Notes under the pieces: generated by a model
Database searches by the model: none
Told to the model about the DNA's origin: nothing
The model's input: the letters and a program-made list of their open reading frames with translations, nothing else
Assembly (NCBI GenBank): GCA_034003985.1
Contig: JAVEXP010000001.1
Location: 68,924 to 132,923 of the forward strand
Direction: 5' to 3'
DNA from: Patescibacteria group bacterium
GTDB lineage: Bacteria; Patescibacteriota; Patescibacteriia; Buchananbacterales; UBA6539
Length of the DNA stretch: 64,000 nt
Program-made: the position numbers and the translations under genes
Part shown: positions 23,796 to 60,362 of the stretch, in pieces
Position numbering within the stretch: the first letter of the stretch is position 1
Layout: each line of letters starts with the position of its first letter

Positions 23796-24119
23796 TTAAT
23801 CATTAGATAAAATATCTGAACCGACTGCTTGTTCAACAATTTTTTTCAAACTGCGCAATCCAGCACCGGTTGATCCGGTTTGGGAAGGCACGGCAACAAT
23901 TGAAGGCAGAGCCTTGGGTGGCAGATCATCCATGAATTTACGGATTTTATCAGCCCAGTCTTCAGTAATAAAAATAATGGCATAATCGGAAGATTGGTGA
24001 AGTTCGCCAAGTTTGGTTTGGCATTCGGCAACTGATTTGACACCAACAGCTTCCACTCCAACGGCTTTAAAACCATTGATGGCGTCTTCATTTCCGATTA
24101 TCGCAATTTTATAGCTCAT
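23796..24119 (-). CDS. atpF: V/A-type ATP synthase subunit F
   Basis: 'MSYKIAIIGNEDAINGFKAVGVE' is a subunit F hallmark. Confidence 0.8.
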   Translation of the reverse strand: MSYKIAIIGNEDAINGFKAVGVEAVGVKSVAECQTKLGELHQSSDYAIIFITEDWADKIRKFMDDLPPKALPSIVAVPSQTGSTGAGLRSLKKIVEQAVGSDILSND

Positions 24120-24120
24120 A

Positions 24121-25158
24121 TTAATAAACTTCTCTTATAGTTTCTCTAATAGCCTGTGTCGGTAACCCGGCAAGTTTGCCAGTAAGAATTATTCGGACAT
24201 TGGTAACGGCATTAACCTTGGCCAAATAGTAAGCAAAGATAACTTCCGGACCGTAGGAAAAATGTTTGGCCATTCTGGCATAGCGGACTTTATAGTCATC
24301 AACGGCTTTTTCCAATTCCCAGAGGTTGTCATTTTCACAGAATTGTTCAAAGACTTCCAAAATTTTTAGATCAAAGTTGGCGTTGACAAATGATCGCAAG
24401 CCACGGGTTTCTTCCGGGTAAAGTTGAAGCATTCTTTGAATATCGGCATGACCGCCTTTGATTAATTTTTCTTTAAGCTTTTCTTTGGATAGTCCTAGTC
24501 GTTTGACGCGAACCCAAATTAGCAGGTTGGCGGTATCAATTTCCATTTTGATGTAATTTTTGATGAACCGACTGCCGATCATTTCGGCCAGTTGTTGTTT
24601 TAAATCAAAATATTCCTGGGTTAGTATTGCATCAAGTTCGTCGGGGCGGGTATTTTCTTTGAGGCGTTTGCTGACGCGGTAAATTACATCCTTCATTTCC
24701 TGTTCCATAACCTGGCCTTTTTGTTCGCTGATATAGGCCTGGAGAATTTCGGGGGAATGAATGTGGGTCTCATAGATAAAATCTTTCAAATGTCTTGGCG
24801 AGTATATGACATTTTCTTTAATATATTGATTGACATCAACGCCATAAAGTTTGGATTTGAAGAACAGTTTGATATTGATGAAGTCGCGATCAAGCAGGAT
24901 TAATTCAAACAATTCTTGTTTGGGGGTAATGCGTTGAAGCAAATCGTGGAGCTGGGCAAAATCTTCCCGCAGCGCGTCACGGTAATTTACCGGGTCGACT
25001 TCCAACAGGTTGTCGCCGTAATCGGTGTCGTGAAGGACTTTGAAAGCCCCCGACAAATCGGGCGCGTCAATCATTCGCTCAATGTCGGTGGCATCAAGGA
25101 TTAATTTTTCAAGCGCCCGAAGCTTGGCACTGGCGTAGATGTAATTAGTGCCTTTCAT
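24121..25158 (-). CDS. atpC: V/A-type ATP synthase subunit C (V0 d subunit)
   Basis: It is a 345-aa helical protein at the position of the C/d subunit in the operon. Confidence 0.65.
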   Translation of the reverse strand: MKGTNYIYASAKLRALEKLILDATDIERMIDAPDLSGAFKVLHDTDYGDNLLEVDPVNYRDALREDFAQLHDLLQRITPKQELFELILLDRDFINIKLFFKSKLYGVDVNQYIKENVIYSPRHLKDFIYETHIHSPEILQAYISEQKGQVMEQEMKDVIYRVSKRLKENTRPDELDAILTQEYFDLKQQLAEMIGSRFIKNYIKMEIDTANLLIWVRVKRLGLSKEKLKEKLIKGGHADIQRMLQLYPEETRGLRSFVNANFDLKILEVFEQFCENDNLWELEKAVDDYKVRYARMAKHFSYGPEVIFAYYLAKVNAVTNVRIILTGKLAGLPTQAIRETIREVY

Positions 25159-25161
25159 AGT

Positions 25162-25737
25162 TTATTGTTGATCGCGATTAAATAGCATTTTACTGACTTC
25201 GAGAACAGTCCAGTCCCTGCTGTTGTTTATTAAGCTGGTAAAAGTGTTATCGATTTCGACGGATTTGGAGCGGAAAACAAAGCCACCCGAAACATTGGCG
25301 GTTTCAGCTAAAACTTCGAATTTGCGGCCACTTTGTTTAAGCGCTTTTTTAAGCAGCGCTTCTTTGCCTTTGGCCGAAATCAATTTTCCGTCTTCTTCCG
25401 GTAGTCGGTTAATCAATTTAATCATCAAAACAACATAGTCGGAATCATTCAGGCCGTTAAGCTTATTAAGGGCTGATTTATAAACCCGGTCGATAATATT
25501 TTGTTTCTGATTGATGATTTCGGTTTGGGCCTGAGCCTGCAGCTTAAACTGGGTCTGCTGGATTTTTTGAGTGGCCTTGCGTTTGGCGGTAGCGACAATG
25601 GCTTGTTTGTGTTCTTCCAGTTTTCTATTCCAGTCAGCTTTTAGTTGGCCAATCTTCTGTTCACCCTGTTGAATCACGGTTTTGATTTCAGCGTCAGCTT
25701 CGGCCAGAATCGCTTTTTTAATGTCATCAAGAGCCAT
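25162..25737 (-). CDS. atpE: V/A-type ATP synthase subunit E
   Basis: It has an N-terminal charged coiled coil and a C-terminal globular domain, in the subunit E position. Confidence 0.65.
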   Translation of the reverse strand: MALDDIKKAILAEADAEIKTVIQQGEQKIGQLKADWNRKLEEHKQAIVATAKRKATQKIQQTQFKLQAQAQTEIINQKQNIIDRVYKSALNKLNGLNDSDYVVLMIKLINRLPEEDGKLISAKGKEALLKKALKQSGRKFEVLAETANVSGGFVFRSKSVEIDNTFTSLINNSRDWTVLEVSKMLFNRDQQ

Positions 25738-25769
25738 AGATTAGCAGTTAACTTTTAGGGTCATTAACA

Positions 25770-26294
<525 letters not shown>

Positions 26295-26298
26295 TTAA

Positions 26299-28269
26299 TT
26301 ATTGATTATCTTTATTAATTATTCGAATGTATTTAGAATCTTTACGGAACGGCTGAAACAAGACGCCGCCGCCTTCCATAAACTTTGGGAAGAATTCAAC
26401 AAACTGCAAACGACTGGAATGGATGAAAGCACCCAGGGCATTGATGCCTAGATTGAATACATGCCCGCCAATGATAATGAAAAAAGCAATCACCCAGCCC
26501 AGATAGGGAACCATATCAATTGTCAGACCGGCAATTAGATTAACTACCATGGCAATAATACCAGTGGCTAGTCCCAAGGCCAGTAATCGGGAATAGGATA
26601 AGACATCGGACAAATAACCAACTAAACCATAAAGACTGATGACACCGCTGCTTAATTTCATGATTGGATTTTTTTGATGGCGGCCTTGGGTGGCGATTAA
26701 AGCAATGACTCCCGCCCAAACTAAATATTTGGAATAGGCAAATTGAATCAAGCCCAGTTTGGCTGCACCGCCAATTAAGATGGCAAAGATGAAATAAAGC
26801 CACAAGCCGTCATCCAACAAAGCTGATTGGACATTATGATGTTTGATTTTCCACCACATACTGACAATAATGCCGATGATTACTTGAATAATTCCCAATA
26901 TCAAAGAGAAAACCAGCATGGTTAGAGGATCTTTGACCGGATCAATCAACCGAACGGAAACCAGCAGATTTCGTAAGGGAAGATATGGAATGTTGTCGAT
27001 GACAATCCCGAACCAACCGCCAACGGCGGCACCAGCGAAAAAAGTTACCAAACCGCCCCAGAATAGAACTTTGAACATCTTTTTCATCTCAGCACTTGGT
27101 TTGAGTAATTTTAAGCCCAACCAAGAAACCAAGGCCAAAACAATGCCATAACCGGCGTCAGTTAAGCACAACCCGAAAAATAAAATGAAGAAAGGGGTTA
27201 ACCAGGGGGTTGGATCCGGTTCGCCGTATTGGGGAGCGCCATAAACATTGGTGACAAATTCAAATGATTTGGCCCAGGTATTTTTAAAGATAATTGGCAC
27301 CGATTCATCTTCGTTGATTGGTAGTTCCTCAACCACAAAATTGGGACTGACTTTGTTCAATTCAGTTTCCAGTCGATTGATCAAGTTTTTGTCTATCCAG
27401 CCGATTAAAGAAAAAGTTTGGTCGGTATGAAGAGCTTTTTGTTGGTTTTCGATTTTTTCTTTTTGCCAACTTAAATAATCAAAAACGATTTTTAACTCCC
27501 GTTGGGAGTTGGCAAATGTTTGAGCTTGGGTGGTTAATATTTCAATTTGGTGCTGGGTTTGTTCTAGTTGATGATTTATTTCTTTGATGCGGTCACTAAC
27601 GCCGATTTCCAAGTTAGGAAATTCGGCAACTTTGATATTGAGTTCGTTTAAGATTTCGTTGAGCTGGCTCTCGCTGCCGGTTTTGAAAAATACAACTGCC
27701 AAAATCTCAGTTTTGACGGCATCGACTTTTTCGGCCTGGCTTAACGGTAGGCTGGATTGCAGGGCAGTTAATAAATCAGCGAAATTATTTTCGGCGGCAA
27801 TTATCAAGCGGAAATCAAAATTAGTTTCCAATTTTTGGTGATTGGGGACAAAATCAAGTTTTTGCCAAGGTTCAATTTGTCCAAGCTCAATTTGCAATTT
27901 GTCTTTGAATACATTGGCATTGTTAATCCCGGCTTCAATATCCTGAATTTTTTTAACCTCGGTCTGATAATCGAAATTTTTGATTGTGGTTTGGACTTCC
28001 GCTAGATCAAGATTGATTTTGGAATCAATTTTCTCACTTAAACTTTTCTTTTTGGTTTCGAAACCAGCCAGCCAATCCAAAGCAAAGCGCGCTCCGGCCA
28101 GCTGGTAATCAATTTGAGCCAGTTGATCATTGATGTTTTGTCGTTTAAGCGTTTGATCAGGGTTGTCAATAAGTTCAGTAAAACCGACATTCTGTAAAAC
28201 TTCCAGAATATCAGCTTGATCTTGCTGGTGACCAATAATATTAATTTTGGCAACTTGAGCAACAGCCAT
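26299..28269 (-). CDS. atpI: V/A-type ATP synthase subunit I (a subunit)
   Basis: A roughly 300-aa cytoplasmic coiled-coil N-domain is followed by 7-8 TM helices with a conserved Arg in a late helix. Confidence 0.85.
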   Translation of the reverse strand: MAVAQVAKINIIGHQQDQADILEVLQNVGFTELIDNPDQTLKRQNINDQLAQIDYQLAGARFALDWLAGFETKKKSLSEKIDSKINLDLAEVQTTIKNFDYQTEVKKIQDIEAGINNANVFKDKLQIELGQIEPWQKLDFVPNHQKLETNFDFRLIIAAENNFADLLTALQSSLPLSQAEKVDAVKTEILAVVFFKTGSESQLNEILNELNIKVAEFPNLEIGVSDRIKEINHQLEQTQHQIEILTTQAQTFANSQRELKIVFDYLSWQKEKIENQQKALHTDQTFSLIGWIDKNLINRLETELNKVSPNFVVEELPINEDESVPIIFKNTWAKSFEFVTNVYGAPQYGEPDPTPWLTPFFILFFGLCLTDAGYGIVLALVSWLGLKLLKPSAEMKKMFKVLFWGGLVTFFAGAAVGGWFGIVIDNIPYLPLRNLLVSVRLIDPVKDPLTMLVFSLILGIIQVIIGIIVSMWWKIKHHNVQSALLDDGLWLYFIFAILIGGAAKLGLIQFAYSKYLVWAGVIALIATQGRHQKNPIMKLSSGVISLYGLVGYLSDVLSYSRLLALGLATGIIAMVVNLIAGLTIDMVPYLGWVIAFFIIIGGHVFNLGINALGAFIHSSRLQFVEFFPKFMEGGGVLFQPFRKDSKYIRIINKDNQ

Positions 28270-28580
28270 TATTTGGTAACCTCCTTGAGGACCGTTTCGG
28301 CAGCACGGTTAATTTTTTGGTCATTGATTGATTGCAGAAGCTGTAATTGACCGGCCAATTCGCGTTCTTGTTTGGCTTTTAAACTGTTGATTTTGGTTTT
28401 GGCATCATTAAGAATTTCTTGGATTTCATTGGAAACCTGATTTTCAGCTTGATTAAGGCTTGATTGACCATCTTGATTCGCTTGCGAAACCAGATTTTCG
28501 ATTTTTTGTCTAGCTTCAGCGACTTTAACCTTAGCTTCGGCTTCGGCTTGCTTGATGCTATCAATAGTATTAGTTGTCAT
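28269..28580 (-). CDS. V/A-type ATP synthase subunit H/G-like (small coiled-coil stator component)
   Basis: It is a 103-aa all-helical charged protein and the first gene of the operon, overlapping atpI by 1 nt. Confidence 0.5.
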   Translation of the reverse strand: MTTNTIDSIKQAEAEAKVKVAEARQKIENLVSQANQDGQSSLNQAENQVSNEIQEILNDAKTKINSLKAKQERELAGQLQLLQSINDQKINRAAETVLKEVTK

Positions 28581-28624
28581 AAAATAAAAAAAATTTTTTT
28601 TAATATTTAGTTTTTCGAAATATT

Positions 28625-28752
28625 TTGGCTGAATTTAGCTAAATTTATAGCTTATTAAGTTACTATTTAAGTATAAGAGACAATTCTAATCTGTCAAGGG
28701 TCGGGAATTACTTATTAGGATACTTTTTATTATTTTGGCTAAATTTAGCCAA
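28625..28752. promoter_or_regulatory. Two copies of palindromic motif 'tattttggctRaatttagc' in the divergent control region
   Basis: 28625-28647 reads 'ttggctgaatttagctaaattta'. 28735-28752 reads 'ttggctaaatttagccaa', a perfect 18-bp palindrome. The two are about 105 bp apart, between the ATPase operon start and the GC-rich island. Confidence 0.35.
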
Positions 28753-28840
28753 TCGGTTCTTGACTTTCACTTAAAATTTAATTTAAAGTAATATAAATCG
28801 GCGGAAACGGGTTCCGTTTGATATATAAGGAGGATTTGCC

Positions 28841-29485
28841 TTGGGAAACGGAGAGCAGTTTTTTCTGGAACAGTTTCGGCAACGCCAAGCCTTGTGGATT
28901 TATCAAGGCGAACCGCGAGCTGAAGCGCCACATGGGTTGATGACCTCGGGGAAGCATTCCAAAGGCTATTTTAACAGCACACCGATCGTTCGCGATCCGA
29001 AGCTGTTGTCGGTAGCCTGTGGTACCCTGCTGCATTCGATAAGCGTTGACCCCAAAGATGTCGGCGAAGTCTGGGGTAGCGCAATGGGTGCGATTATGAT
29101 GGCCTATGAGTTGGCCCAACAAATTGGTGCGCTTTCGGGCTACACTGAGAAGCAGGAAGGAAACATGGTGGTTGGTCGCAATGCGATTCAGCCCGGCACT
29201 CGTGTGCTGCTGGTGGAAGATGTTATCACCACCGGCGGTACGACTTTGAAAACGGTGGCCGCGCTGGAGTCGGCGGGAGCCATCGTGATGGGAGAAATTC
29301 TGGCGTTGGTAAACCGTTCGGGCCTGACTGAACTGAACGGTCGTAAGATCGTGTCCTTGATTGAGCAGGAGTTGCCCTTGTGGAGCGCGGCTGAATGTCC
29401 GTATTGCCGGGTTGGTTCCGAGGCTTTGCGGCCCAAGGGCGAGAACTGGTTTCGACTTGTCGGAACAGGAGGTGAAACAGGATGA
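28841..29485 (+). CDS. Orotate phosphoribosyltransferase-like type I PRTase (TTG start)
   Basis: A perfect SD 'AAGGAGG' lies 6 nt before the TTG. 'VLLVEDVITTGGT' is the PRPP-binding motif. 'SGKHSKGYFN' resembles the PyrE 'SGRKSPYFFN'. GC is about 60%. Confidence 0.75.
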   Translation: MGNGEQFFLEQFRQRQALWIYQGEPRAEAPHGLMTSGKHSKGYFNSTPIVRDPKLLSVACGTLLHSISVDPKDVGEVWGSAMGAIMMAYELAQQIGALSGYTEKQEGNMVVGRNAIQPGTRVLLVEDVITTGGTTLKTVAALESAGAIVMGEILALVNRSGLTELNGRKIVSLIEQELPLWSAAECPYCRVGSEALRPKGENWFRLVGTGGETG

Positions 29486-30354
29486 ACGCTTTCTTGTCTT
29501 TGATCCGGGATGCTGGCGGTGATGAGCGAACCCGGATCTGTGTTGGGCTGGATCCTGAAATCGCGCGGCTTCCCGTCTGTGTCAGAGGGTCTAACCCAGC
29601 GGAACGAGTGATGTCGTTTTCGACTGATGTGGCCGCTGCTACAGCGCAGTTTGCTTTGGCCTTTCAAACCAAGCTGGCCATCTGGCAAGCGGTTGGCGCT
29701 GAAGAACAACTGGCAAAACTGATTGCTTATATTCAAGGGCAATTGGGTCGGCCGGTGATCTTGGACGCCAACTATGGCGATGTTCCGGCAATATCCGCGG
29801 AATATGCGAAAGCCGCTTTCGATCGTTTCGACGCTAGCGCGGTAACGCTGAATGTCTATCACGGTCGAGACAGCCTGGTTCCCTGGCTGAAGCGCGGTCC
29901 GGAAAAAGGACTGTTCGTTGTCTGCCACACCAGCAACGACATGGCCAGTGATTTTCAGGACCTGCAGGTCAACCCGGTTGGTAATGGCGGCCATTTGCCA
30001 TTGTTCGTCCATTTGGCTCATCAGGTGCTGCAGCTGCGGTCGGACGACAGCGCAACTATCGGATTCGTGATGGACGAAGCATTCCCGATGCATATTACCA
30101 GCCTTCGGCCGCAAGCTGGTGACTGGTGGTGGCAGCCATCAGAGATTCCGTTGCTGATCGGGTATTCGTCGGGGCAGCTTGAGGAGTTGGTAGGGCGGGC
30201 TTCGTTCTATCCTTTCCTGCTGAGCTGTTCGCGAGGGATAATCCACGCTTCGGAGGAGTCGGATTTTGCCCAGGCCGCCGCTAATGCCGCCGAGGGCTTG
30301 CGTAACCGAGTCAACATGGTGTTGGAAAACAAGGAGGGATGTCGTGTCGGCTAA
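29482..30354 (+). CDS. Orotidine-5'-phosphate decarboxylase-like (type 2 / HUMPS family) with a non-canonical active-site motif
   Basis: 'ICVGLDP', 'VTLNVYHG' and 'VCHTSNDM' match type-2 ODCase blocks. The DxKxxD block reads 'ILDANYGDV', so the catalytic Lys is replaced by Asn and the Arg by Tyr. The ATG overlaps the upstream stop and has SD 'GGAGGTGA'. Confidence 0.7.
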   Translation: MNAFLSLIRDAGGDERTRICVGLDPEIARLPVCVRGSNPAERVMSFSTDVAAATAQFALAFQTKLAIWQAVGAEEQLAKLIAYIQGQLGRPVILDANYGDVPAISAEYAKAAFDRFDASAVTLNVYHGRDSLVPWLKRGPEKGLFVVCHTSNDMASDFQDLQVNPVGNGGHLPLFVHLAHQVLQLRSDDSATIGFVMDEAFPMHITSLRPQAGDWWWQPSEIPLLIGYSSGQLEELVGRASFYPFLLSCSRGIIHASEESDFAQAAANAAEGLRNRVNMVLENKEGCRVG

Positions 30355-30490
30355 CTCACAATCGTACCCCGGTCGACCCAGGAAATGCAGTAATGTTCCA
30401 GGGTCGAAGGCCTGTGATAAGTGCCGGAAGAACAACGGAACTTATTGCCAGTACTGCACCGCTTGGCAGAATGCCAGCGGCAAGAAGTAG
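30344..30490 (+). CDS. 48-aa zinc-ribbon-like Cys-rich small protein (GTG start)
   Basis: SD 'AAGGAGGG' lies 5 nt upstream of the GTG. The product is 'VSANSQSYPGRPRKCSNVPGSKACDKCRKNNGTYCQYCTAWQNASGKK', with CxxC...CxxC spacing. GC3 is about 64%, matching the island. Confidence 0.4.
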   Translation: MSANSQSYPGRPRKCSNVPGSKACDKCRKNNGTYCQYCTAWQNASGKK

Positions 30491-30507
30491 TACTACTACA
30501 TATAACT

Positions 30508-30556
30508 TTGACCCCGCCTTTGGATGAAATGAGGGTGACCACTGGCGGGTCTTTTT
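30508..30556 (+). terminator. Putative terminator after the small Cys-rich ORF
   Basis: Stem 'gacccgcc/ggcgggtc' with a roughly 25-nt loop is followed by TTTTTT. It precedes a short AT-rich, promoter-like spacer. Confidence 0.35.
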
Positions 30557-30667
30557 TATTTGATTTATTGACTTTTTGTCGATTTGTTAGTAAGTTTAGG
30601 TACTCGGTTTATAAATCGAGTGACAGTGCTAAACAGGAATCTACCGCAACGGAAAGGGAGATCAGCC

Positions 30668-31774
30668 ATGCCAACATTGACAGGTGGAACATTGTTACTA
30701 GAAGAGGAAGGTCTGGCCGGAATCAAACCCGGTTTGATCAAGCATGCACTGTTTGACAGTGACGGAACCATCTCGCTCTTGCGGGCGAAATGGGATCTGG
30801 TAATGGCGCCAATGATGTGCCGGGCGATTTGCGGTGAGGGAAACACAGTGCCCCAGGAAGTGGCCGAGATCGTTTCCGACACCATTGAGGAAACAACGGG
30901 CATTCGGACAATTCGCCAGATGGAGCTGCTGGTCAATCTGGTCATGCAGTTCGGGCTGGTGCCTGACGATCAGGTCAAGGATGCTTGGGGGTACAAGGCC
31001 GACTATTTGGCGGCATTGATGGTGCCGGTCAACGAGCGGATTGCGCGCGTTCAGTCCGGCGCTTGCAAGCCGGAGCATTTTATGGTTCGGGGGATTGGGA
31101 CTCTCCTGGAACTGTTTTGCCAAGTCGGAATCGACATGCGGGTGTTCTCCGGCACCGATGAACCCGATGTGCGACGCGAACTCGAAGTGCTGGGAGTCCT
31201 TCACCATTTCACCTCAGTTCACGGGGCAGCACCGGCGCTGAAGCCCGGAGAACCTGAAATCGACAAGGAACAGGTTCTCCAATGCTTGATGGAAGAGCAG
31301 GGGCTCAAAGGCGAGGAAGTTTTGATCATCGGCGACGGTCCGGTGGAAATCAAGCTTGCGCGGCAGTTCGGCTGTTGGGCCATTGGCGTTTGTTCGAAAG
31401 AGGGCGATGATCGCAAAGGCTATGATCAGGCCAAGGTCGCGCGTCTGACCAAGGCCGGGGCCCATGTGCTTATCCCCGATTTCAGCGACGCTTGCCGCTT
31501 GGTACGCGAACTGTTCAAAGTCGCGTCAATCATCGAGCCGGCCAATTTTCCGCTGCCGGAAGATGAAGACATGCTGTCGTTGCTTGGCTTTATCCGCAAC
31601 CAGGTCAGCAACGGCGAATTCAAGCCTGGCGACTTGTTGCCCACCCCGGAAGAATTTGTCGAGCGCTTTTCCCAGATCGTCGGGCATCGGGTTTATCCTG
31701 AAACCGTGGTCGGACTGTACAACGCGTCCGAACATATCAAGCGGCGTGACTATGACGGCTATGTGATTGTCTAA
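30668..31774 (+). CDS. HAD superfamily hydrolase (subfamily IA-like phosphatase) with a roughly 150-aa C-terminal extension
   Basis: The ATG has SD 'AAGGGAG'. 'ALFDSDGTIS' is motif I (DxDGT). 'SGTD' is motif II. 'IIGDGPVE' is motif IV. Confidence 0.7.
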   Translation: MPTLTGGTLLLEEEGLAGIKPGLIKHALFDSDGTISLLRAKWDLVMAPMMCRAICGEGNTVPQEVAEIVSDTIEETTGIRTIRQMELLVNLVMQFGLVPDDQVKDAWGYKADYLAALMVPVNERIARVQSGACKPEHFMVRGIGTLLELFCQVGIDMRVFSGTDEPDVRRELEVLGVLHHFTSVHGAAPALKPGEPEIDKEQVLQCLMEEQGLKGEEVLIIGDGPVEIKLARQFGCWAIGVCSKEGDDRKGYDQAKVARLTKAGAHVLIPDFSDACRLVRELFKVASIIEPANFPLPEDEDMLSLLGFIRNQVSNGEFKPGDLLPTPEEFVERFSQIVGHRVYPETVVGLYNASEHIKRRDYDGYVIV

Positions 31775-31786
31775 GGGGGGGGCAAA

Positions 31787-31912
31787 ATGAAGCCGCTTGT
31801 TCAGCGTTCAGCGGAATTGCCGCTGACTATTCAATTTATATTCATCGCAGTAACGGTGGTTTTGTTGGCAGTAATCTTGCTGCCGGCAATTGTCCGATCG
31901 TTGGGTGACTGA
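31787..31912 (+). CDS. 41-aa hydrophobic peptide (possible small membrane protein)
   Basis: 'MKPLVQRSAELPLTIQFIFIAVTVVLLAVILLPAIVRSLGD'. It is preceded by a G8 homopolymer and has GC-rich codon usage. Confidence 0.3.
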   Translation: MKPLVQRSAELPLTIQFIFIAVTVVLLAVILLPAIVRSLGD

Positions 31913-32035
31913 TAGTAATTCAACGAACAAACCGTGACAACCCGTTATTTGCTGGGGCCTTGACCGTGCGTCGAGGCTCGTTTTTTTACATTTTGGAAAT
32001 TTTTGTTTGGGTTTAATCTGTGTTAAAATAAGTTT

Positions 32036-35000
32036 ATGGAAATAAATTTAAAAACTTTAAATTCTGAACAGAAAAAGGCCGTGACGCACGATCAGGGACC
32101 TCTTTTAATAGTCGCCGGTGCGGGTACGGGCAAGACCACGGTAATTACCCAGCGCATCGGCTGGCTGATTGAACAGGAAAAAGTGAAGCCCGATGAAATT
32201 TTGGCCTTGACTTTTACCGATAAAGCGGCCGGCGAAATGGAAGAGCGGGTGGACCAGTTGCTGCCTTATGGCTACATTGATTTGTGGATTATGACTTTTC
32301 ACGCTTTTGCCGAAAAGATTTTACAGCAGCACGCTTTGGAAATCGGTTTGCCCAATGATTTTAAATTACTAAACCAGACCGAGCAATGGCTGCTGGTGCG
32401 CCAGAATTTGGATCGGTTTGGACTTGATTTTTACAAGCCACTTGGCAATCCGACCAAATTCGTCCATGCCTTAATTAAATTATTTTCCCGCGCCAAAGAT
32501 GAATTGGTTGTACCGCAAGATTATTTAAATTATGCACAGGATTTAAAACTTAACAGCGACAGCCCTGATTTTATCGCCGACATTTTGGAGCCCGGAGCAA
32601 TTAAAAAAATGTCTAAGGCCGAGAAGAAAGAATTGGTTGCTCAAGAGATTAAAAAAGTCCAGGAGGCGGCTAATGCTTATCATATCTATCAGCAATTGTT
32701 GTTGGAAAATAATGCTTTGGATTTTGGCGATTTAATCAATTATTGTTTGGAGCTGTTTAAAAAACGCCCGGCAATTCTGGCCAAATACCGATCCAAATTT
32801 AAATACATTTTGGTTGATGAATTTCAAGATACTAACTACGCTCAATATGAACTGGTTAAATTGTTGTCCGGCGGCAACGACAATATTACGGTAGTCGGTG
32901 ATGACGATCAGTCAATTTATAAATTCCGCGGGGCATCAGTTTCTAATATTCTGGAATTTAAAAAAGATTACCCTAAGGCTACTGAAATATTTTTAACCAA
33001 GAACTATCGTTCGGGCCAAAATATTTTGGATTTGTCTTATAAATTTATTCAGCAAAACAATCCCAACCGTTTGGAAGTAAAATTGGCCAAGACTAAAAAA
33101 GCTAAAGATAAAGTTTTGACCAAGGAATTGAAGTCGCAAATTAAAGACAAGGGCGAGATTAAACATTTCCATTTTGCCGCTTACGACGATGAAATTAGGG
33201 GAGTGCTGGAGCAAGTTGACGCTTTGAAGCGTCAAGATAAAACGGCGGCTTGGTCGGATTTTGCGATTTTAGCTCGGACCAACGAGGTGGCCAATAATTT
33301 TTCTCAAGCCTTGGCCCAAACCCAAATTCCCTATCGGTTTGTGGCTTCTCGCGGCCTTTATACCAAGTCGGTGGTGTTGGATATTCTGGCTTATTTGCGG
33401 CTGCTTGACAATTACCACGAAAGCAGTGCGGTTTACCGGATTTTGAATTCACCGGTTGTGGGTTTGGACAACCGGACAATTGTTCAGCTGAATTATTGGG
33501 CGCGGCGTAAAGGCTACTCGTTGTTTGCGACTTTACAGAATGTCAGCAGTATGCGTTTTAGCGATTTTGAAGTCCAGAGCAAAATCAAGAATTTTTTGAG
33601 TTTGGTGGACAAACATACCCAGCTGGCGCGAACCAAAGGTGTCGGGGAAGTGGTGATGGCGTTTTTGGAAGACACTACTTACTTGGAGCAGCTGACGGCC
33701 AAAGAAGATGCGGCAATGCTGGAAAATACCAATTACTTAAATCAGTTTTATAAACGAATAAACGATTTTGCACAATCAACTGAAGATCCCAGTATTAAGA
33801 ATTTTTTGGAGTTGATAAATTTGGAATTGGAAGCGGGCCAAACCGGCAACCTGGAACAGAACTTGGACGAAGGGCCGGATGCTTTGAAGGTAATGACGGT
33901 TCACGCGGCCAAGGGTTTGGAATTCAAATATGTTTGGATTGTCAGTTTGGTTGACCGCCGGTTTCCGACCGATGATCGGCCGGATCCGATCAGTTTGCCG
34001 GAAAAACTGATCAAAGAAATTTTACCCGAAGGCGATATCCATACTCAGGAAGAAAGACGCTTGATGTATGTGGCAATGACGCGGGCAAAACAAGGTTTGT
34101 ATTTAACCAGCGCCGCCGACTACGGCGGAGCGCGCCATAAAAAAATTTCCAAGTTTTTAGTTGAATTCCAGGATTTAGGTTTGAAGCTTGACAAACAAGT
34201 CGCGGAATCGCAGGCGGATAAATTAAAATTAAGTATCCGGGCCGGTGAAAAAAATAGTGCCCGGCTGACCAGGGAAGACATTGAGTATCTGCTGCCGCAA
34301 AAGTTTTCGTTCAGCCAATTGAGTTCCTTTAAGCATTGCCCTTATCATTATTGGCTGGAATATATTTTAAAGATCCCTCAAAAGGGTAAAAGTTTTTTTT
34401 CGTTTGGGACTTCAATCCATAGCACCTTACAGCAGTTTTTTTTGCTGGTTTTACAGCGCAGTCAAAGCAACCAGCAGGATCTGTTTGGGCAGATTAAATA
34501 TCATCAGGCCAAGGGGCCAGTAGTTAGTTTGGAGGAGCTGCTCGCAATCTATCAGCAAAAATGGATTGATGATTGGTATCCGAGTCGCCAGAACCATGAT
34601 GATTACAAGGCCAAGGGAATTCAAATGATGAAGGACTTTTATAAAACTTACCAAGAGGAACTGCCGCTGCCGAAATATTTGGAAACCCCTTTTACTCTGG
34701 ATATCAATGCTGACGGAGAAGTATATAAAATCACCGGGAAAATTGACCGGATTGACCAGCTAAACAGCGGGGTGGAAATTATTGATTATAAAACCGGCGG
34801 TGCCAGAACCGCCAAGACTTTGGATACTGACAGCAAGGAGCAGTTGCTAATTTATCAATTGGCAGCCAGTCAGCAGTTGGGCGAAAAAGTGGAAAAATTG
34901 ACTTATTATTATCTCGAAGAAAATAGCCGAGTTTCATTTGTCGGTTCAGAAAAAGATTTGGAGAATTTAAAAAAGAAAATCGTTGATACCATCGAAGAAA

Positions 35001-35074
35001 TCAAAAACTACGATTGGCCGCCGAAGGTGACTGATTGTCAATGTCAAAATCAAAGCTTAGATACTTTATCGTAA
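32036..35074 (+). CDS. UvrD/PcrA-family helicase with C-terminal PD-(D/E)xK (RecB/Cas4-like) nuclease domain
   Basis: 'LIVAGAGTGKTTV' is Walker A. 'VDEFQDTN', 'TVHAAKGLEF' and 'YVAMTRAK' are helicase motifs. The C-terminal 'CPYHYW...IDYKTGG' is a nuclease motif. The last codons show Cys spacing 'CQCQ'. Confidence 0.85.
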   Translation: MEINLKTLNSEQKKAVTHDQGPLLIVAGAGTGKTTVITQRIGWLIEQEKVKPDEILALTFTDKAAGEMEERVDQLLPYGYIDLWIMTFHAFAEKILQQHALEIGLPNDFKLLNQTEQWLLVRQNLDRFGLDFYKPLGNPTKFVHALIKLFSRAKDELVVPQDYLNYAQDLKLNSDSPDFIADILEPGAIKKMSKAEKKELVAQEIKKVQEAANAYHIYQQLLLENNALDFGDLINYCLELFKKRPAILAKYRSKFKYILVDEFQDTNYAQYELVKLLSGGNDNITVVGDDDQSIYKFRGASVSNILEFKKDYPKATEIFLTKNYRSGQNILDLSYKFIQQNNPNRLEVKLAKTKKAKDKVLTKELKSQIKDKGEIKHFHFAAYDDEIRGVLEQVDALKRQDKTAAWSDFAILARTNEVANNFSQALAQTQIPYRFVASRGLYTKSVVLDILAYLRLLDNYHESSAVYRILNSPVVGLDNRTIVQLNYWARRKGYSLFATLQNVSSMRFSDFEVQSKIKNFLSLVDKHTQLARTKGVGEVVMAFLEDTTYLEQLTAKEDAAMLENTNYLNQFYKRINDFAQSTEDPSIKNFLELINLELEAGQTGNLEQNLDEGPDALKVMTVHAAKGLEFKYVWIVSLVDRRFPTDDRPDPISLPEKLIKEILPEGDIHTQEERRLMYVAMTRAKQGLYLTSAADYGGARHKKISKFLVEFQDLGLKLDKQVAESQADKLKLSIRAGEKNSARLTREDIEYLLPQKFSFSQLSSFKHCPYHYWLEYILKIPQKGKSFFSFGTSIHSTLQQFFLLVLQRSQSNQQDLFGQIKYHQAKGPVVSLEELLAIYQQKWIDDWYPSRQNHDDYKAKGIQMMKDFYKTYQEELPLPKYLETPFTLDINADGEVYKITGKIDRIDQLNSGVEIIDYKTGGARTAKTLDTDSKEQLLIYQLAASQQLGEKVEKLTYYYLEENSRVSFVGSEKDLENLKKKIVDTIEEIKNYDWPPKVTDCQCQNQSLDTLS

Positions 35075-36544
35075 ATGTTTAAGAAAATTGGTTTTAAATT
35101 ATTGCTTGGGGTGGCGGTAGTGATTTTAGCGGCCGTAGCTTATACCGTGATTAATAATGAAAACCAAAAAATAAGTTTTAATGATATGTCTAGTCAACAA
35201 ATCAGGCCGGCGGCAGTCAGCGGGAGTTTTTATCCGTCAACTCCGGCGGAATTAACAACGATGATTGAAGATTTTTTGTCGAAAGTCCAAGTTGACGAGA
35301 CGATTGCCAATCCGCGGATAATTATCGTACCTCATGCTGGGTATCAGTATTCCGGCGCGGTGGCCGCCAAAGCATTTAAGCAATTGATAAATAAGGATAT
35401 TACGCGCGCGGTGATTATCGGTCCGTCGCACCATTTCCCGCTTGCCGGTTTGGTTTTGGCGAAGGCCGATATTTGGCAAACCCCGTTGGGCGAGGTAAAA
35501 GTTTCTTTATTGAATAAAGATTTGGCGCGCCAGCCCAATTTTAAAATTGACGACAAAGTTCATGAGCCCGAGCATGCTTTGGAAATGCAGTTGCCTTGGT
35601 TGCAGATAGTTTTACCTCAGGCCGAAATCATTCCAATTATCGTCGGTCAGTTGAGTTTGGAAGAACAACAACAGTTTGCTGAATCATTGAGCGAAATTTT
35701 AGACGATCAGACAGTTTTGATTGCCAGCGTTGATTTGTCCCATTATCACCAGGCCAATCAGGCCGAACAGCTTGATCGTCAATCGCTAGATGACATTTTA
35801 AATTTTGATTATCAGAGTATTTTGGAAGACGAAGTTGACGCACCTTGGGCGCTGGGTGCGGTTTTACAGCTGGCCAAAGAACAAAACTGGCAGCCTAAAT
35901 TATTAAGTTATCAAAACTCCGGAGATGTTACGGGCGACGATAGCGCGGTGGTTGGTTATGGCGCGGTAGTATTTAATGAAATTAGTTCAGCAGATCAATA
36001 TACCTTAGAAGAAAAGCGCGAAATGCTTCAGGCGGCGCGGGCGGCGATTAGCAATTATTTGACTAATCGGAATAAAATTTTGCCATTGACCGGCAACCAG
36101 AAATATTTGGAACATCAAGGAGCATTTGTAACTTTAATTAAAGACGGCAAACTGCGCGGGTGTATTGGCTATATTGAGCCAGTTGCGCCTTTGGGTCAAG
36201 CAATTATTGACAATGCCATTGCGGCCGCGGTTTCGGACCACCGGTTTGAACCAGTAGAATTTGCCGAACTGGCGGCAATTGAAATTGAGATATCAATTTT
36301 AACCGAACCGCAGCCTGATTCCATGGAAGCTATCGCCACCGCGCACAAAGGAGTGGTTTTGGAACAGGGAAATCAGGCGGCAACTTATTTGCCGCAAGTC
36401 TGGGAGTCATTTGATAGTCCCCAGGAATTTTTTGGCAGTTTATGCCTGAAAGCCGGGTTGGCAGGCAACTGCTATTTGGACCCAAAAACCAAACTGTTTT
36501 CGTATCAAGCAATTGTTTTTAATGAGTCGGAATTGGTTGATTAA
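35075..36544 (+). CDS. MEMO1-family (AmmeMemoRadiSam protein B-like) fused to an AMMECR1 domain, with N-terminal TM anchor
   Basis: 'IIVPHAGYQYSG' and 'IIGPSHH' are Memo/dioxygenase-class III motifs. The C-terminal 'GAFVTLIKDGKLRGCIGYIEP' is AMMECR1. Confidence 0.75.
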   Translation: MFKKIGFKLLLGVAVVILAAVAYTVINNENQKISFNDMSSQQIRPAAVSGSFYPSTPAELTTMIEDFLSKVQVDETIANPRIIIVPHAGYQYSGAVAAKAFKQLINKDITRAVIIGPSHHFPLAGLVLAKADIWQTPLGEVKVSLLNKDLARQPNFKIDDKVHEPEHALEMQLPWLQIVLPQAEIIPIIVGQLSLEEQQQFAESLSEILDDQTVLIASVDLSHYHQANQAEQLDRQSLDDILNFDYQSILEDEVDAPWALGAVLQLAKEQNWQPKLLSYQNSGDVTGDDSAVVGYGAVVFNEISSADQYTLEEKREMLQAARAAISNYLTNRNKILPLTGNQKYLEHQGAFVTLIKDGKLRGCIGYIEPVAPLGQAIIDNAIAAAVSDHRFEPVEFAELAAIEIEISILTEPQPDSMEAIATAHKGVVLEQGNQAATYLPQVWESFDSPQEFFGSLCLKAGLAGNCYLDPKTKLFSYQAIVFNESELVD

Positions 36545-36588
36545 TTAGATTGCCAATTGGTCGATAAATTGTTATACTAAAATATATT

Positions 36589-36990
36589 ATGAGCTTTCGT
36601 TTTTTTCTGATTTTGTTAATTTTAGGAACCATTATTGCCTGGGCCGGCTGGCTGCTGGTAATTTTTTATCTTGACCCCACTCAACTTAGTTGGTTGGGTT
36701 TTTTGTTTTTCTATGCCGCCTTAGCCTTAGCTTTAAGCGGTACGATTTTTTTAGCTGGTGATCTTATTAAGTCAAAAATCATCAGGAATAAGTTACTTTA
36801 TTACCGGGTTCGGTCATCAGTCCGTCAATCAATTTTGTTTGCGATGTTGATTTTGGGCTGGCTGCTGCTCAAAAGTCTTGGTGTGCTGCGTTGGTGGAAT
36901 TTGCTGATATTAATTTTATTTTTGGCGGCAGTGGAATTTTTCTTTATTTCTTCGCAAAAACATAAGGATTCATACGAACGGGGACTTTAA
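36589..36990 (+). CDS. Hypothetical small membrane protein
   Basis: It has 3-4 TM helices. Confidence 0.4.
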   Translation: MSFRFFLILLILGTIIAWAGWLLVIFYLDPTQLSWLGFLFFYAALALALSGTIFLAGDLIKSKIIRNKLLYYRVRSSVRQSILFAMLILGWLLLKSLGVLRWWNLLILILFLAAVEFFFISSQKHKDSYERGL

Positions 36991-38018
36991 TGAAGGAACA
37001 ATTAGCACAACTTAAAAATCAATTTAATCAAGAAATTGCTAAAGCCTCCAGCGAACAAGAGCTGGCTGAATTGGATACCAAATATTTGGGTCGTAAAGCC
37101 GGGGTGCTTACTAATATTTTGCGCGGATTAAAAGATTTAGGTGCCGAAGAAAAAAAGATTGTTGGTCCATTGGCTAATCAGTTGAAGGCGGAGCTGGAAG
37201 CAATGATTAAAGATCGGCGTTCAAGATTAAAGGGATTGGCCGATAATCAGACGATTGATGTTACTCTGCCTGGTCGGGAATGGCCGCAGGGCAGTTTGCA
37301 TTTGGTAACCAAAGCTATTGGGGAAATTTCTGAAATTTTTGAACATATCGGATTTGTCCGTCGCAGATATCCGGAAGTGGAATGGGATTGGTATGCTTTT
37401 GAATCATTGAATATGCCGCCCGATCATCCGGCCAGGGACGAATGGGAAACTTTTTTTATCGATCGTGAACCGGTTGGGCCAAAAGGCCAGCGGGTGTTGA
37501 CCCCTCATACTTCGTCGGGCCAGGCTAGGGAAATGGAACGCCAGCAAATGCCGATTCGAATGATTAATATTTCCAAATGTTATCGGCGTCAGATTGATGT
37601 TTCGCACGCGCCGATGTTCCATCAGTTTGAAGGATTATTAATTGACAAAGAAGTAAACATTGCCGACTTGAAGGGTACGCTGGATTATTTTGCTAAGCAA
37701 TTTTTTGGTTCCGATCGTCAGGCGCGAATTCGGCCGTTTCATTTTCAATTTACTGAACCAAGTTTTGAAGTCGATATTTCTTGTGGTTTGTGCCACGGTG
37801 AAGGCTGTAAGATGTGTAAGAGCGGCTGGTTGGAATTGGGTGGGGCGGGAATGGTTCATCCCAATGTTTTGCAAGCCGGGGGAATTGATCCTAAAAAATA
37901 TTCCGGATTTGCGTTTGGCTGGGGCGTGGAACGGACTTACATGATGAAATCCGGTTTGAGCATCCCCGACATCAGAATGATTTATCAAAATGATTTAAGA
38001 TTCTTAAAACAGTTTTAG
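36990..38018 (+). CDS. pheS: Phenylalanine--tRNA ligase alpha subunit
   Basis: It has class II aaRS motifs and 'FEGLLIDKEVNIADLKGTL...GWLELGGAGMVHPNVL'. Confidence 0.95.
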   Translation: MKEQLAQLKNQFNQEIAKASSEQELAELDTKYLGRKAGVLTNILRGLKDLGAEEKKIVGPLANQLKAELEAMIKDRRSRLKGLADNQTIDVTLPGREWPQGSLHLVTKAIGEISEIFEHIGFVRRRYPEVEWDWYAFESLNMPPDHPARDEWETFFIDREPVGPKGQRVLTPHTSSGQAREMERQQMPIRMINISKCYRRQIDVSHAPMFHQFEGLLIDKEVNIADLKGTLDYFAKQFFGSDRQARIRPFHFQFTEPSFEVDISCGLCHGEGCKMCKSGWLELGGAGMVHPNVLQAGGIDPKKYSGFAFGWGVERTYMMKSGLSIPDIRMIYQNDLRFLKQF

Positions 38019-48291: not shown

Positions 48292-48570
48292 ATGAACAAA
48301 CCAATCGTCGGCCACAAAATCCTTAAAGCCTTGGAAGGTTTTGAGGCCGGTTTGGGCGATGATGCCAGCATCCAGCCCGCCATTCTGGCCAATCGGAATT
48401 TTGATCCGAGCCGGGTTGTGGCAGCCTGGGGCGGATACCTCAACGATGCCTGGACCGACAAGATCCAGGCGAAAATCCAGGAGGGTTTCACGGTCGTGCG
48501 AATCCAGACCGAATGGACTGGCAAGGCACACCGGACCATGATTTACCTGGTCAAACTGAGCGCCGAATAA
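48292..48570 (+). CDS. Hypothetical 92-aa protein in a GC-rich islet
   Basis: It has a strong promoter, an RBS and a terminator. GC is about 55%. Confidence 0.45.
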   Translation: MNKPIVGHKILKALEGFEAGLGDDASIQPAILANRNFDPSRVVAAWGGYLNDAWTDKIQAKIQEGFTVVRIQTEWTGKAHRTMIYLVKLSAE

Positions 48571-48598
48571 CCATTTGGCCGACATTGCTCAGTTTTGA

Positions 48599-48633
48599 GA
48601 AGCCGCATGGTGCGCCCAGCGGCTTCTTTTCTT
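48599..48633 (+). terminator. Rho-independent terminator
   Basis: A perfect 8-bp stem 'gaagccgc/gcggcttc' with a 12-nt loop, followed by TTTTCTT. Confidence 0.65.
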
Positions 48634-48965
48634 ATCTAAAGCTAAACGGCAGTTATATTTTCCGCCAATATTTCGTGGCGTTCAAATGGTGGCATTAATA
48701 TTTATCTTTAATATATTTGATAACTTCTCGGTCGTGCTTTATTATTATTAGATTTTTTGTTTCTTCTGAGGTAAATCAACCCATCACTTGTCCTTCACCT
48801 TGGGTCAGTTTTAGGCCGGAATCATATTCTTCCATCCTACTCATAATAAGAATAAAAGTTAGGTGGAATAAAAAAATAATTAATTACCTATTAATCAAGA
48901 GTGTGTCGGGCAGTTTATATTTTGTGCAACCAGATAAAATGTGCTGGGCGCTGTTTTTTCTTTTC

Positions 48966-48994: not shown

Positions 48995-49041
48995 GGATTG
49001 AGTTCTGGTAACATAGCTGACAACATAGGAGGAAACAGGAT

Positions 49042-49284
49042 ATGTCTACCAAGGCACTTTGGTGTATCAGTTTTAACGACGGTACTTCCGTTGAGGTACG
49101 AGGCTCAAGCAAGCGCAATGCTGACAATCAGGCTTGCGCGAAGGCTGGCAAGACTCATCGCGAGATCTGTTCTCGGGGCGTGGTTTGTGGCAAGCCTCAC
49201 AACGGAAAACGAAATCGATCAAGACATTCCGGTGTAGTACATCCTTGCGCCAGCCCCCTGTCCCGTTGGGGTTGGCACTACTAA
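49042..49284 (+). CDS. Hypothetical 80-aa basic Cys/His-containing protein in a GC-rich islet
   Basis: RBS 'TAGGAGGA' lies 8 nt before the ATG. The product begins 'MSTKALWCISFNDGTSVEVRGSSKRNADNQACAKAGKTHREICSRGVVCGKPHNGKRNRSRH'. Confidence 0.45.
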   Translation: MSTKALWCISFNDGTSVEVRGSSKRNADNQACAKAGKTHREICSRGVVCGKPHNGKRNRSRHSGVVHPCASPLSRWGWHY

Positions 49285-49314
49285 GCTTTCGCCCGTGTTC
49301 GTTTTTACCGGCCT

Positions 49315-49344
49315 TGTCTGGACTGCCCCACGATCGCGTCGCGG
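49315..49344 (+). terminator. Putative terminator
   Basis: Hairpin 'ccccacga-tcgcg-tcgcgggg' followed by a T8 run. Confidence 0.45.
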
Positions 49345-49371
49345 GGCTTTTTTTAGTAAAAAAATAACCTG

Positions 49372-60194: not shown

Positions 60195-60362
60195 GCCACT
60201 TCTCCTTCTTGTTGGCATATTCCATTGTAGGGAACACAAAATTGTACTCATTTTGAGCACCTCAAAACATACCATAAAATATGATTTTTGTCAATAATTA
60301 TGCTTGAATTAACCCGGTTTTTTTGCTATTTTTAAATAGTTGAAACTAAATAATTAGCTAAA

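Follow-up and report, generated by a model that had tools for sequence, protein, structure and literature searches.

Introduction

Orotidine 5'-monophosphate (OMP) decarboxylase (ODCase) is a textbook enzyme with catalysis reliant on an Asp-Lys-Asp-Lys network, and mutation or loss of the lysine in its DxKxxD motif abolishes OMP decarboxylation. The closest described systems to the locus reported here are the pyrE-pyrF gene pair (models TIGR01367 and TIGR02127) for the conversion of orotate via OMP to uridine 5'-monophosphate (UMP), the final two reactions of UMP biosynthesis, the physically coupled orotate phosphoribosyltransferase (OPRT)-ODCase systems such as the Plasmodium OPRT-OMPDC complex and the UMP synthase of Leishmania, a fusion protein (PDB 3qw4), as well as the ODCase-suprafamily enzymes KGPDC and HPS. 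A 64,000-nucleotide stretch from a Patescibacteria group bacterium (contig JAVEXP010000001.1, positions 68,924 to 132,923, hereafter the window; the region is part of the Joint Genome Institute (JGI) contig Ga0485107_000029 of 331,630 bp) contains a GC-rich block of five genes, in which a phosphoribosyltransferase (PRTase) gene is followed by a gene for an ODCase-fold protein without the catalytic lysines. Judged from its sequence, this protein is a candidate natural ODCase pseudoenzyme, and the locus is an unusual variant of the known pyrE-pyrF cassette, not a demonstrated new pathway.

The locus shares with pyrE-pyrF the adjacent, coupled PRTase and ODCase genes, the phosphoribosyl pyrophosphate (PRPP) motif, and a barrel that superposes on known ODCases (TM-score 0.74-0.78), and relatives at the same locus carry every catalytic motif. 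The differences are that the two lysines, the loop Gln, the phosphate-loop PG, and the GAT motif are missing from the window PyrF homologue, that the PRTase scores under its family cut-off, that a Zn-ribbon gene is added, and that no further pyrimidine gene was found within the window. The window ODCase-like protein resembles the Leishmania enzyme in that type-2 ODCases of this kind gave its best matches in both sequence and structure. Physically paired OPRT-ODCase systems provide a precedent for two proteins acting as a pair, although both partners are active in those systems and the contact in the window is putative. KGPDC and HPS have the same barrel with an altered active site and an acidic or neutral residue at the position of the beta2 lysine, but they keep the DxKxxD lysine that is missing from the window protein and no sequence affinity with them was detected.

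A lysine-less ODCase homologue under purifying selection beside a PRTase constitutes a test case for the evolution of pseudoenzymes or new functions in this fold. For annotation it is a trap: the protein scores above the curated PyrF cut-off and carries the name PyrF in the JGI annotation, such that metabolic reconstructions would wrongly credit the host with orotate-to-UMP conversion. A literature search on ODCase pseudoenzymes and on Patescibacteria pyrE/pyrF returned nothing relevant.

Catalytic residues and fold of the ODCase-like protein

Comparison with orthodox ODCases revealed the substitutions K62Q, K97N, T104I, G198D/A199E/T200A, and Q229S, together with deletion of the PG in the PGxGxQGG loop. 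The catalytic motif reads ILDANYGD (N97) in place of the orthodox LDAKRGD, and the second active-site lysine at the end of beta2 (F/Y-K-P/A-N/Q) is replaced in the window sequence FQTK. A three-residue deletion removes the PG from the phosphate/pyrimidine loop, which reads LL---IGYSSGQ, while T104I lies in GDVPAIS and the orthodox VMGATFP is changed to VMDEAFP. The charge-network aspartates D24, D95, and D100, the TSN motif, and the phosphate-binding R251 are retained. Placement of N97 and Q62 was agreed by three alignments, i.e., phmmer against the PDB and MAFFT alignments of 14 and 120 sequences.

Among the top 120 database homologues, the DxKxxD lysine was absent only from the window protein, the 119 others having DxKxGD. 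The window protein was altered in 30 of the 90 near-invariant columns (at least 95% conserved in the other 119), compared to 9-14 in its clade-mates and a mean of 0.9 for the 119. Relatives at the same chromosomal site keep all the catalytic motifs, including YKPN/YKAN/FKPN, DAKxGD (DGKWGD in protein P0002), HTSN, PGxGxQ(G/E)G, and SSR. The initial annotation of this stretch, made from the sequence alone, had reported the substituted DxKxxD lysine and had argued that the gene set was not a simple UMP synthesis pathway. The first claim was borne out (DANYGD) and extends to the second lysine, the loop Gln, and further residues; the second is supported by these losses, because of which the gene set does not encode orthodox UMP synthesis.

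The ODCase fold was kept. Pfam and NCBIfam matches were solely to PyrF models, with a TIGR02127 score of 115.6 that marginally passed the cut-off of 110.6 compared to 192 for the orthologue in the related locus L002. The AlphaFold2 (AF2) model had a pLDDT of 85.8 and a pTM of 0.88, and its top Foldseek matches were all ODCases (Toxoplasma gondii, Leishmania, and A. prevotii) at the TM-scores given above, consistent with a (beta/alpha)8 barrel.

The same degenerate motifs, including an identical DANYGD, were present in L010, a contig from a different JGI sample with 88% nucleotide identity to the window. L010 is evidently an indel-rich, error-rich assembly in which essential genes are also fragmented into short open reading frames (ORFs), and was used only with gap-skipping codon comparisons. 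On this basis, the ODCase-like gene had a dN/dS of 0.171 (dN 0.052, dS 0.306; window versus L010, Nei-Gojobori, gapped codons skipped), compared to 0.03-0.18 for host genes. As L010 shares the degenerate motifs and dN/dS is 0.17, the protein appears to be maintained and not decaying. A scan of JGI metagenomes with the ODCase-like protein gave one relative at 30% identity and no more members of the degenerate lineage.

The public JGI call for this protein (P0001, 247 aa) begins 43 codons late (window 29482-29610) and misses the VGLDP region. The 290-aa reading used here aligns with homologues from residue 1, VGLDP motif included.

The PRTase and the Zn-ribbon-like peptide

The PRTase retains the PRPP motif VLLVEDVITTGGT and a C-terminal CPYC, and its PF00156 match is the type I PRTase signature. 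Its best curated model was TIGR01367 (pyrE_Therm) at 110.3 bits, below the 150.25 cut-off and leading all other models by a wide margin, and its best PDB match was the OPRT entry 4paw (E 3e-14). The gene had a dN/dS of 0.083 (window versus L010, Nei-Gojobori). The family is common across the Patescibacteria at 40-60% identity, with more distant matches (33-40% identity) to PyrE-like genes of Clostridia, Acidobacteria, Nitrospirae, and others. In four of seven other Patescibacteria loci the PRTase gene is directly followed by an orthodox type-1 ODCase (~250 aa, PF00215 E 1e-29 to 1e-39, DLKLxD), indicating that a two-gene pyrE-pyrF cassette is a common feature of the Patescibacteria; no additional pyrimidine genes lay beside pyrE-pyrF in the other Patescibacteria loci examined. 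Orotate-to-OMP-to-UMP salvage is the simplest reading of this cassette from family membership and gene pairing. As the type-2 ODCases of the same-site relatives keep all motifs and other Patescibacteria pair the PRTase with orthodox ODCases, the ancestral function at the window locus was probably ordinary pyrE-pyrF conversion of orotate to UMP.

The third gene encodes a 48-aa peptide with the cysteine pattern CX8CX2CX7CX2C and no Pfam or NCBIfam match. It is translationally coupled to the ODCase-like gene by overlap with the ODCase stop codon and had a dN/dS of 0.31 (window versus L010). A 56-aa homologue overlapping the ODCase stop codon was found in L002 and in no other locus examined, and this overlapping gene common to just the two ties the window operon to the orthodox operon of L002.

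Composition, Shine-Dalgarno sites, and junctions of the GC-rich block

In 400-nt windows, GC content rose from 0.29-0.38 at 28400-28999 to 0.53-0.58 across 28800-30399, dipped to 0.47-0.50 at 30200-30799, returned to 0.53-0.58 up to ~31.8 kb, and fell to 0.44 by 31800-32199. Overall GC was 0.545 for the block (28841-31912) compared to 0.422 for the remainder of the window. GC at third codon positions (GC3) was 0.60-0.66 in the PRTase, ODCase-like, Zn-ribbon, and HAD phosphatase genes versus 0.42-0.48 in the flanking V-ATPase and helicase genes. The GC excess was present at every codon position, third included, and placed the genes of the block ~3 robust standard deviations over the median of 58 long ORFs in the window. 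The first three genes were preceded by 7-9 nt matches to the Shine-Dalgarno (SD) complement AAGGAGGTGA, whereas only 2 of 40 host genes had a match of at least 7 nt and 38 of these 40 had no recognizable SD sequence. The host genome appears to be largely SD-independent, hence the conspicuousness of an SD-led operon. These data agree with the initial annotation on the abrupt GC steps at ~28.8 and ~31.99 kb, on near-perfect SD sites unlike those of the host, and on the presence of the five genes it described (ORFs, PF00156, PF00215, and HAD matches).

Both junctions were spanned by L010, which aligned over window positions 24001-37000 at 88% nucleotide identity, and L009, a contig from an NCBI assembly, covers the HAD gene, the 41-aa transmembrane (TM) peptide gene, and the start of the helicase gene, i.e., the right-hand junction. 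The misassembly considered in the initial annotation is excluded because the junctions recur in these assemblies, which were made independently from other samples. A whole-window Rfam scan and ARAGORN found no tRNA, tmRNA, or RNA gene anywhere in the window and thus no tRNA-linked integration, and no flanking direct repeats were found at the borders of the block. The nearest tyrosine recombinase, probably a XerC/D-type gene, lies 21 kb away (window 53261-54085, Phage_integrase and SAM-like N-terminal domains) and adjoins neither this nor a second GC-rich block (see below).

Relatives, synteny, and history of the cassette

The PRTase-ODCase pair was present in the same interval, from the V-ATPase operon to the UvrD-PD-(D/E)XK helicase gene, in all family-level relatives found (L002, L003-L005, and L006), whose host proteins are 64-70% identical to those of the window. 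The closest relatives of the ODCase-like protein (P0002-P0007, 40-47% identity) all come from this chromosomal position. The slot before the helicase gene varied, with nothing extra in L002, an unrelated ~80-aa gene in L003 (11020-11262), and that gene plus a 552-aa CoA-transferase/FadX-like gene in L006 (3561-5219). The L002 PRTase (5153-5848) is non-orthologous, being 24-27% identical to the others compared to 59% between the window and L003, and demonstrates that in-place replacement does occur at this site. The slot between the V-ATPase operon and the helicase behaves as a variable region and hotspot for insertion and replacement.

ODCase identities were 60% for L002-L003, 46.5% for window-L002, and 40.6% for window-L003, compared to ~63, 70, and 64%, respectively, for host proteins. 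Three-taxon arithmetic on these identities gave a window ODCase branch ~3 times the other two. The shared overlapping Zn-ribbon gene favors orthology with L002, i.e., accelerated change followed by renewed constraint. In neighbor-joining (NJ) trees, the only trees built, the nearest outgroups of the type-2 ODCase clade were gammaproteobacterial PyrFs and other Patescibacteria used type-1 enzymes.

The pair was GC-rich in the relatives too, with values (PRTase and ODCase genes versus background) of 0.56 and 0.52 versus 0.40 in L002, 0.49 and 0.50 versus ~0.39 in L006, and 0.50 and 0.47 versus 0.30 in L003, where GC3 was 0.44-0.50 versus 0.19-0.20. The same genes at native GC in close relatives, which would have spoken against the proposal of the initial annotation, were not encountered. 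Unrelated type-1 cassettes were likewise GC-rich in L011 (0.52/0.51 versus 0.38), L012 (0.58/0.585 versus 0.40), L015 (0.55 versus 0.43), and L017 (0.52/0.48 versus 0.40), while L013, L014, and L016 had little or no GC offset of the cassette. With host proteins only 64-70% identical, synonymous sites should long have equilibrated under vertical descent. That GC3 is still in excess suggests repeated replacement from a pool of higher GC, which fits the swapped L002 PRTase, or an unknown constraint on these genes. GC-rich, SD-led pyrE-pyrF genes in several unrelated low-GC Patescibacteria and the PRTase swap in one sister lineage suggest that nucleotide-salvage cassettes are exchanged, or are under unusual compositional constraint, in these symbionts.

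In four of these other contigs the pyrE-like gene (plus type-1 pyrF if present) was the most GC-rich stretch (L011 975-2347, L012 5992-7412, L015 2289-3038, and L017 142-1600), with an excess of 8 to 18 points and GC3 up to 0.69. Further GC-rich, uncharacterized genes lie beside the cassette in L012 (3285-4757) and L015 (1764-2264).

A single, recently acquired four-gene island does not match this distribution, in which relatives at 64-70% identity have the PRTase-ODCase pair in the corresponding slot and the HAD and TM genes are confined to the sublineage of the window. The horizontal acquisition proposed in the initial annotation agrees with the foreign composition and with the absence of the HAD and TM genes from L002, L003, and L006, but not with the presence of the PRTase-ODCase pair in all of these relatives. 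IMG/VR scans with PRTase and ODCase alignments gave no relative of the ODCase and, for the PRTase, distant matches only (at most 33% identity over most of the matched stretch), such that the cassette is not phage-borne. PADLOC returned no defense match for any of the five proteins and PHROGs matched only a generic PRTase phage family; with no defense system and no phage-borne relative detected, the suggested defense pathway is not supported.

The HAD-GntR-like fusion and the TM peptide

The second unit, encoding the HAD protein and the 41-aa TM peptide, was present only in the window, L009, and L010, and absent from L002, L003, and L006. Catalytic motifs I-IV of the HAD domain are intact and invariant in the family alignment (FDSDGT, SGT, K200, and GDGPVE, matching GDGxxE), and AF2 modeled the domain with pLDDT >90. 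The top Foldseek matches were AlnB (4ex6), Gph-like proteins, beta-phosphoglucomutase, and the pyrophosphatase BT2127, i.e., generic C1-cap HAD phosphatases that share its fold and four catalytic motifs but are 12-20% identical to it. Unlike these, the window HAD is a member of a separate subfamily, in which fusion to PfkB kinases or a position beside an adenine PRTase gene (apt) is frequent, and it has a C-terminal GntR-like domain unique to the window protein. The nearest sequences outside its own lineage (43-49% identity, ~275 aa) come from Nitrospirae, Calditrichaeota, and Anaerolineae, all without the C-terminal extension, whereas many of the more distant relatives are PfkB fusions. The closest relatives lie in the order sigma70, apt, HAD on three contigs and a more distant one in the order SIS-PfkB-HAD-ROK.

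The 85-aa extension matched Pfam GntR at E 0.011 and 15.9 bits, under the gathering cut-off of 27, and matched three tandem-GntR proteins (E 1e-7 to 4e-4) over approximately residues 6-57 of 86 in a library-wide phmmer search. Its similarity to the winged helix-turn-helix (wHTH) of GntR regulators spans the first half of that domain and comprises the motif xxIxxGxfKPGDxLPsxxEf plus the helices after it. The extension differs from these regulators in lying C-terminal to an enzyme and not N-terminal to an effector domain, in its sub-cut-off score, and in a divergent recognition helix, and AF2 predicted three helices at a confidence too low to confirm a winged helix (mean pLDDT of 34-57 in 10-residue blocks). 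Two stand-alone homologues of ~100 aa were found in a search of 1.84 billion representatives. The omega values versus L009 were 0.109 for the HAD domain, 0.18 for the extension, and 0.39 for the TM peptide, and all three are under purifying selection.

The 177-nt AT-richer spacer between the units (30491-30667), which holds the terminator-like hairpin, was 96.6% identical to L010 and exceeded the conservation of the coding sequence. The 20-bp near-palindrome in the spacer (Table 1) was unique in the window, with 0.02 matches expected in shuffles, and is a candidate operator for the HAD-wHTH protein.

Proposed explanation and alternatives

The GC-rich segment would be a composite insertion at the variable slot between the V-ATPase operon and the UvrD/PD-(D/E)XK helicase gene. 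Somewhat better than even odds are given to the explanation as a whole, in which a remodeled orotate-salvage operon with a non-decarboxylating ODCase-fold partner stands next to an independent hotspot insertion. The first unit (28841-30490) would be an SD-led three-gene operon descended from a two-gene orotate-to-OMP-to-UMP salvage cassette. Its PRTase would still combine a base with PRPP into a nucleoside 5'-monophosphate, with OMP the most likely product. The ODCase-fold protein would have lost the decarboxylation of OMP and would persist in a non-catalytic role, binding a nucleotide or phosphate as partner of the PRTase, consistent with the conserved R251 and three aspartates. A new catalytic role is the second, less probable possibility for this protein; speculatively, D198/E199, gained while two lysines were lost, could form part of a metal site. 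The second unit (30668-31912) would have been gained only in the sublineage of the window and be transcribed from its own promoter, possibly with autoregulation via the near-palindrome at 30602-30621, with the HAD probably acting on a phosphorylated sugar or nucleotide. A functional link of the HAD to the first unit is possible, based on their co-gain in the same sublineage and the apt-linked relatives.

Several points weigh against this explanation. The substrate of the PRTase, the loss of decarboxylation, and the PRTase-ODCase contact are all inferred, and a second functional pyrF or upp may lie outside the 64-kb window. Terminator function is presumed from hairpins with weak z-scores, and the promoter candidate for the HAD gene in the spacer was identified by eye (TTGACT-17-TAAGTT) and not called by the scan. 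The ODCase degenerated in the very sublineage that gained the HAD, and the closest non-Patescibacteria HADs adjoin a PRTase gene, both fitting a functional link of the units. In the outgroup-rooted NJ analysis the ODCase clade was recovered in 200 of 200 bootstraps with the window protein basal in 190 of 200, and its root-to-tip distance of 0.56 was near-normal against 0.42-0.54 for the others. Instead of an orthologue with accelerated change, the window ODCase could be a xenologue that replaced the original gene from within the same clade, or its basal placement could be an effect of long-branch attraction. A simple accelerated orthologue is one candidate reading, with the three-taxon branch estimate and the Zn-ribbon gene in its favor and the basal placement at near-normal length against it.

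The alternative that survives best, if still unlikely, is a single pathway in which the PRTase ribosylates a base, the lysine-less ODCase modifies the ring, and the HAD removes the 5'-phosphate to yield a modified nucleoside as metabolite, signal, or toxin. Purifying selection on all five genes and the coincidence of ODCase degeneration with HAD gain argue for it, as do the apt-adjacent HAD relatives and AlnB, the top structural match, which dephosphorylates a ribose-5-phosphate adduct. The new acidic residues G198D and A199E alongside the loss of both lysines would also fit, as the Mg-dependent KGPDC and HPS use acidic ligands at the mouth of the barrel. Arguing against it, the terminator-like hairpin and 177-nt spacer separate the HAD gene from the operon, L002 has the PRTase-ODCase-Zn operon without a HAD gene, and the co-occurrence derives from one evolutionary lineage only. 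Further, additional genes for tailoring, export, or immunity are lacking, PADLOC gave no match, and the structural matches of the HAD are generic. A single nucleoside-analogue pathway, one of the examples given in the initial annotation, is not supported but keeps a low probability. In a more specific version, the lysine-less barrel would act on the nucleotide product of the PRTase in a new reaction that may depend on a metal, and the HAD-wHTH protein would dephosphorylate the result to a new modified (oroti)dine-type nucleoside; this version was rated slightly lower still.

Relaxed selection, with a dispensable cassette, a PyrF homologue heading to loss, and constraint that is only apparent from translational coupling or short divergence, is improbable. 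Many near-invariant residues are replaced, reduced genomes of the Patescibacteria kind commonly lose biosynthetic steps, and dN/dS comes from two lineages of which one (L010) is indel-rich. However, the ORF is uninterrupted over 290 codons, L010 has exactly the same degenerate motifs, strong SD sites are still present, and the flanking PRTase gene has a dN/dS of 0.08. The dN/dS of 0.17 at dS 0.31 back-calculates to ~32 nonsynonymous and ~52 synonymous differences, against a neutral ratio of ~3:1.

An orthodox PyrE/PyrF pair that converts orotate to UMP, with the motif differences as alignment artifacts, is very improbable: the JGI names (orotate phosphoribosyltransferase and orotidine-5'-phosphate decarboxylase) and the bare pass of the TIGR02127 cut-off support it, while all three alignments put N at the position of the DxKxxD lysine, the presence of which would have spoken against the initial annotation, and Q in place of the beta2 lysine. 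Further, the TIGR02127 score of the L002 orthologue is 192 bits, and ODCase activity is abolished by mutation of the DxKxxD lysine. A GC-rich block misjoined to a Patescibacteria contig, as the abrupt GC steps might imply, has a negligible probability given the same junctions in L010 (both) and L009 (right) and the pair at the same site in L002, L003-L005, and L006.

Neighboring genes and regulatory-looking elements

The features of the locus are given in Table 1. The surrounding genes are housekeeping, encoding UvrABC, MetRS, TatD, the V/A-type ATPase operon, the UvrD-PD-(D/E)XK helicase, PheRS, DnaE, and ThrRS.

Table 1. Position of genes and regulatory-looking elements in and beside the GC-rich block (window coordinates).
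Feature	Position	Strand	Remarks
Imperfect copy (2 mismatches) of the 18-bp palindrome	28625..28642	.	Between the V-ATPase promoter-like site and the first gene of the V-ATPase operon
Sigma-70-like promoter TTGACA-16-TATACT facing the V-ATPase operon	28670..28697	-	11/12 consensus matches; consensus match only
Perfect 18-bp palindrome TTGGCTAAATTTAGCCAA	28735..28752	.	Directly 5' of the promoter-like site of the PRTase operon
Promoter-like site TTGACT-18-TAAAGT for the PRTase operon	28760..28789	+	Consensus match only
Type I PRTase, Thermus-type PyrE (OPRT) lineage, Patescibacteria subfamily	28841..29485	+	TTG start; SD AAGGAGG; PF00156
Type-2 ODCase-fold protein (PyrF homologue) with degenerate active site	29482..30354	+	PF00215; ATG overlaps the PRTase stop codon
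48-aa Cys-rich Zn-ribbon-like peptide	30344..30490	+	GTG start overlapping the ODCase stop; SD AAGGAGG
Terminator-like hairpin (-16.3 kcal/mol) followed by UUUUUU	30510..30557	+	3' of the Zn-ribbon gene; z-score -1.3
20-bp near-palindrome ACTCGGTTTATAAATCGAGT	30602..30621	.	5' of the HAD gene
HAD phosphatase domain, C1-cap type	30668..31516	+	PF00702/PF13419
85-aa C-terminal extension of the HAD protein, divergent GntR-type winged-helix-like	31517..31774	+	Sub-cut-off Pfam GntR match
41-aa single-pass TM peptide	31787..31912	+	ORF; kept in L009 and L010
Intrinsic-terminator-like hairpin (10 bp) and T-run, right edge of the block	31955..31986	+	Weak z-score

The two copies of the 18-bp palindrome described in the initial annotation are real, one of them with two mismatches, and 0.07 matches were expected in shuffles. 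The perfect copy looks like an operator. Motifs of the GCTAAATTTAG type, similar to these palindromes, also occur in L002 and L003, and their role as operators of the HAD-wHTH protein was rejected because these relatives have no HAD gene. Upstream of the V-ATPase operon, the block ACTATTT(A/T)AGTATA(A/G)G...TGTCAAGGGT (window 28650-28710) is conserved in L002 (~4915-4960) and L003 (~9090-9135). This TGTCAAGGGT-containing block is kept though the proteins of these relatives are just 64-70% identical, and overlaps the strong minus-strand promoter-like site.

Other features of the window

A second sharp GC island (window 58632-60275, minus strand; GC 0.576, GC3 0.68, 300-nt windows up to 0.57-0.60) consists of one gene for a 547-aa protein with an N-terminal hydrophobic segment and no Pfam or PHROG match. 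Two GC-rich patches of ~300 nt (0.55-0.57 in a background of 0.30-0.35) at window 48300-48650 and 49000-49350 contain no convincing ORF, just short frames on either strand that overlap one another. Rfam gave no family above threshold there (sole match JA03, E 0.0098, 23.6 bits versus gathering 44) and no tRNA or tmRNA was found; the patches may be unrecognized structured RNAs. Two apparent fusion proteins were also encoded in the window, a 489-aa Memo-AMMECR1 fusion supported by Pfam (35075-36544) and a 711-aa protein that by eye joins a MiaB-type radical-SAM enzyme to a MiaA-type P-loop isopentenyltransferase (60363-62498).

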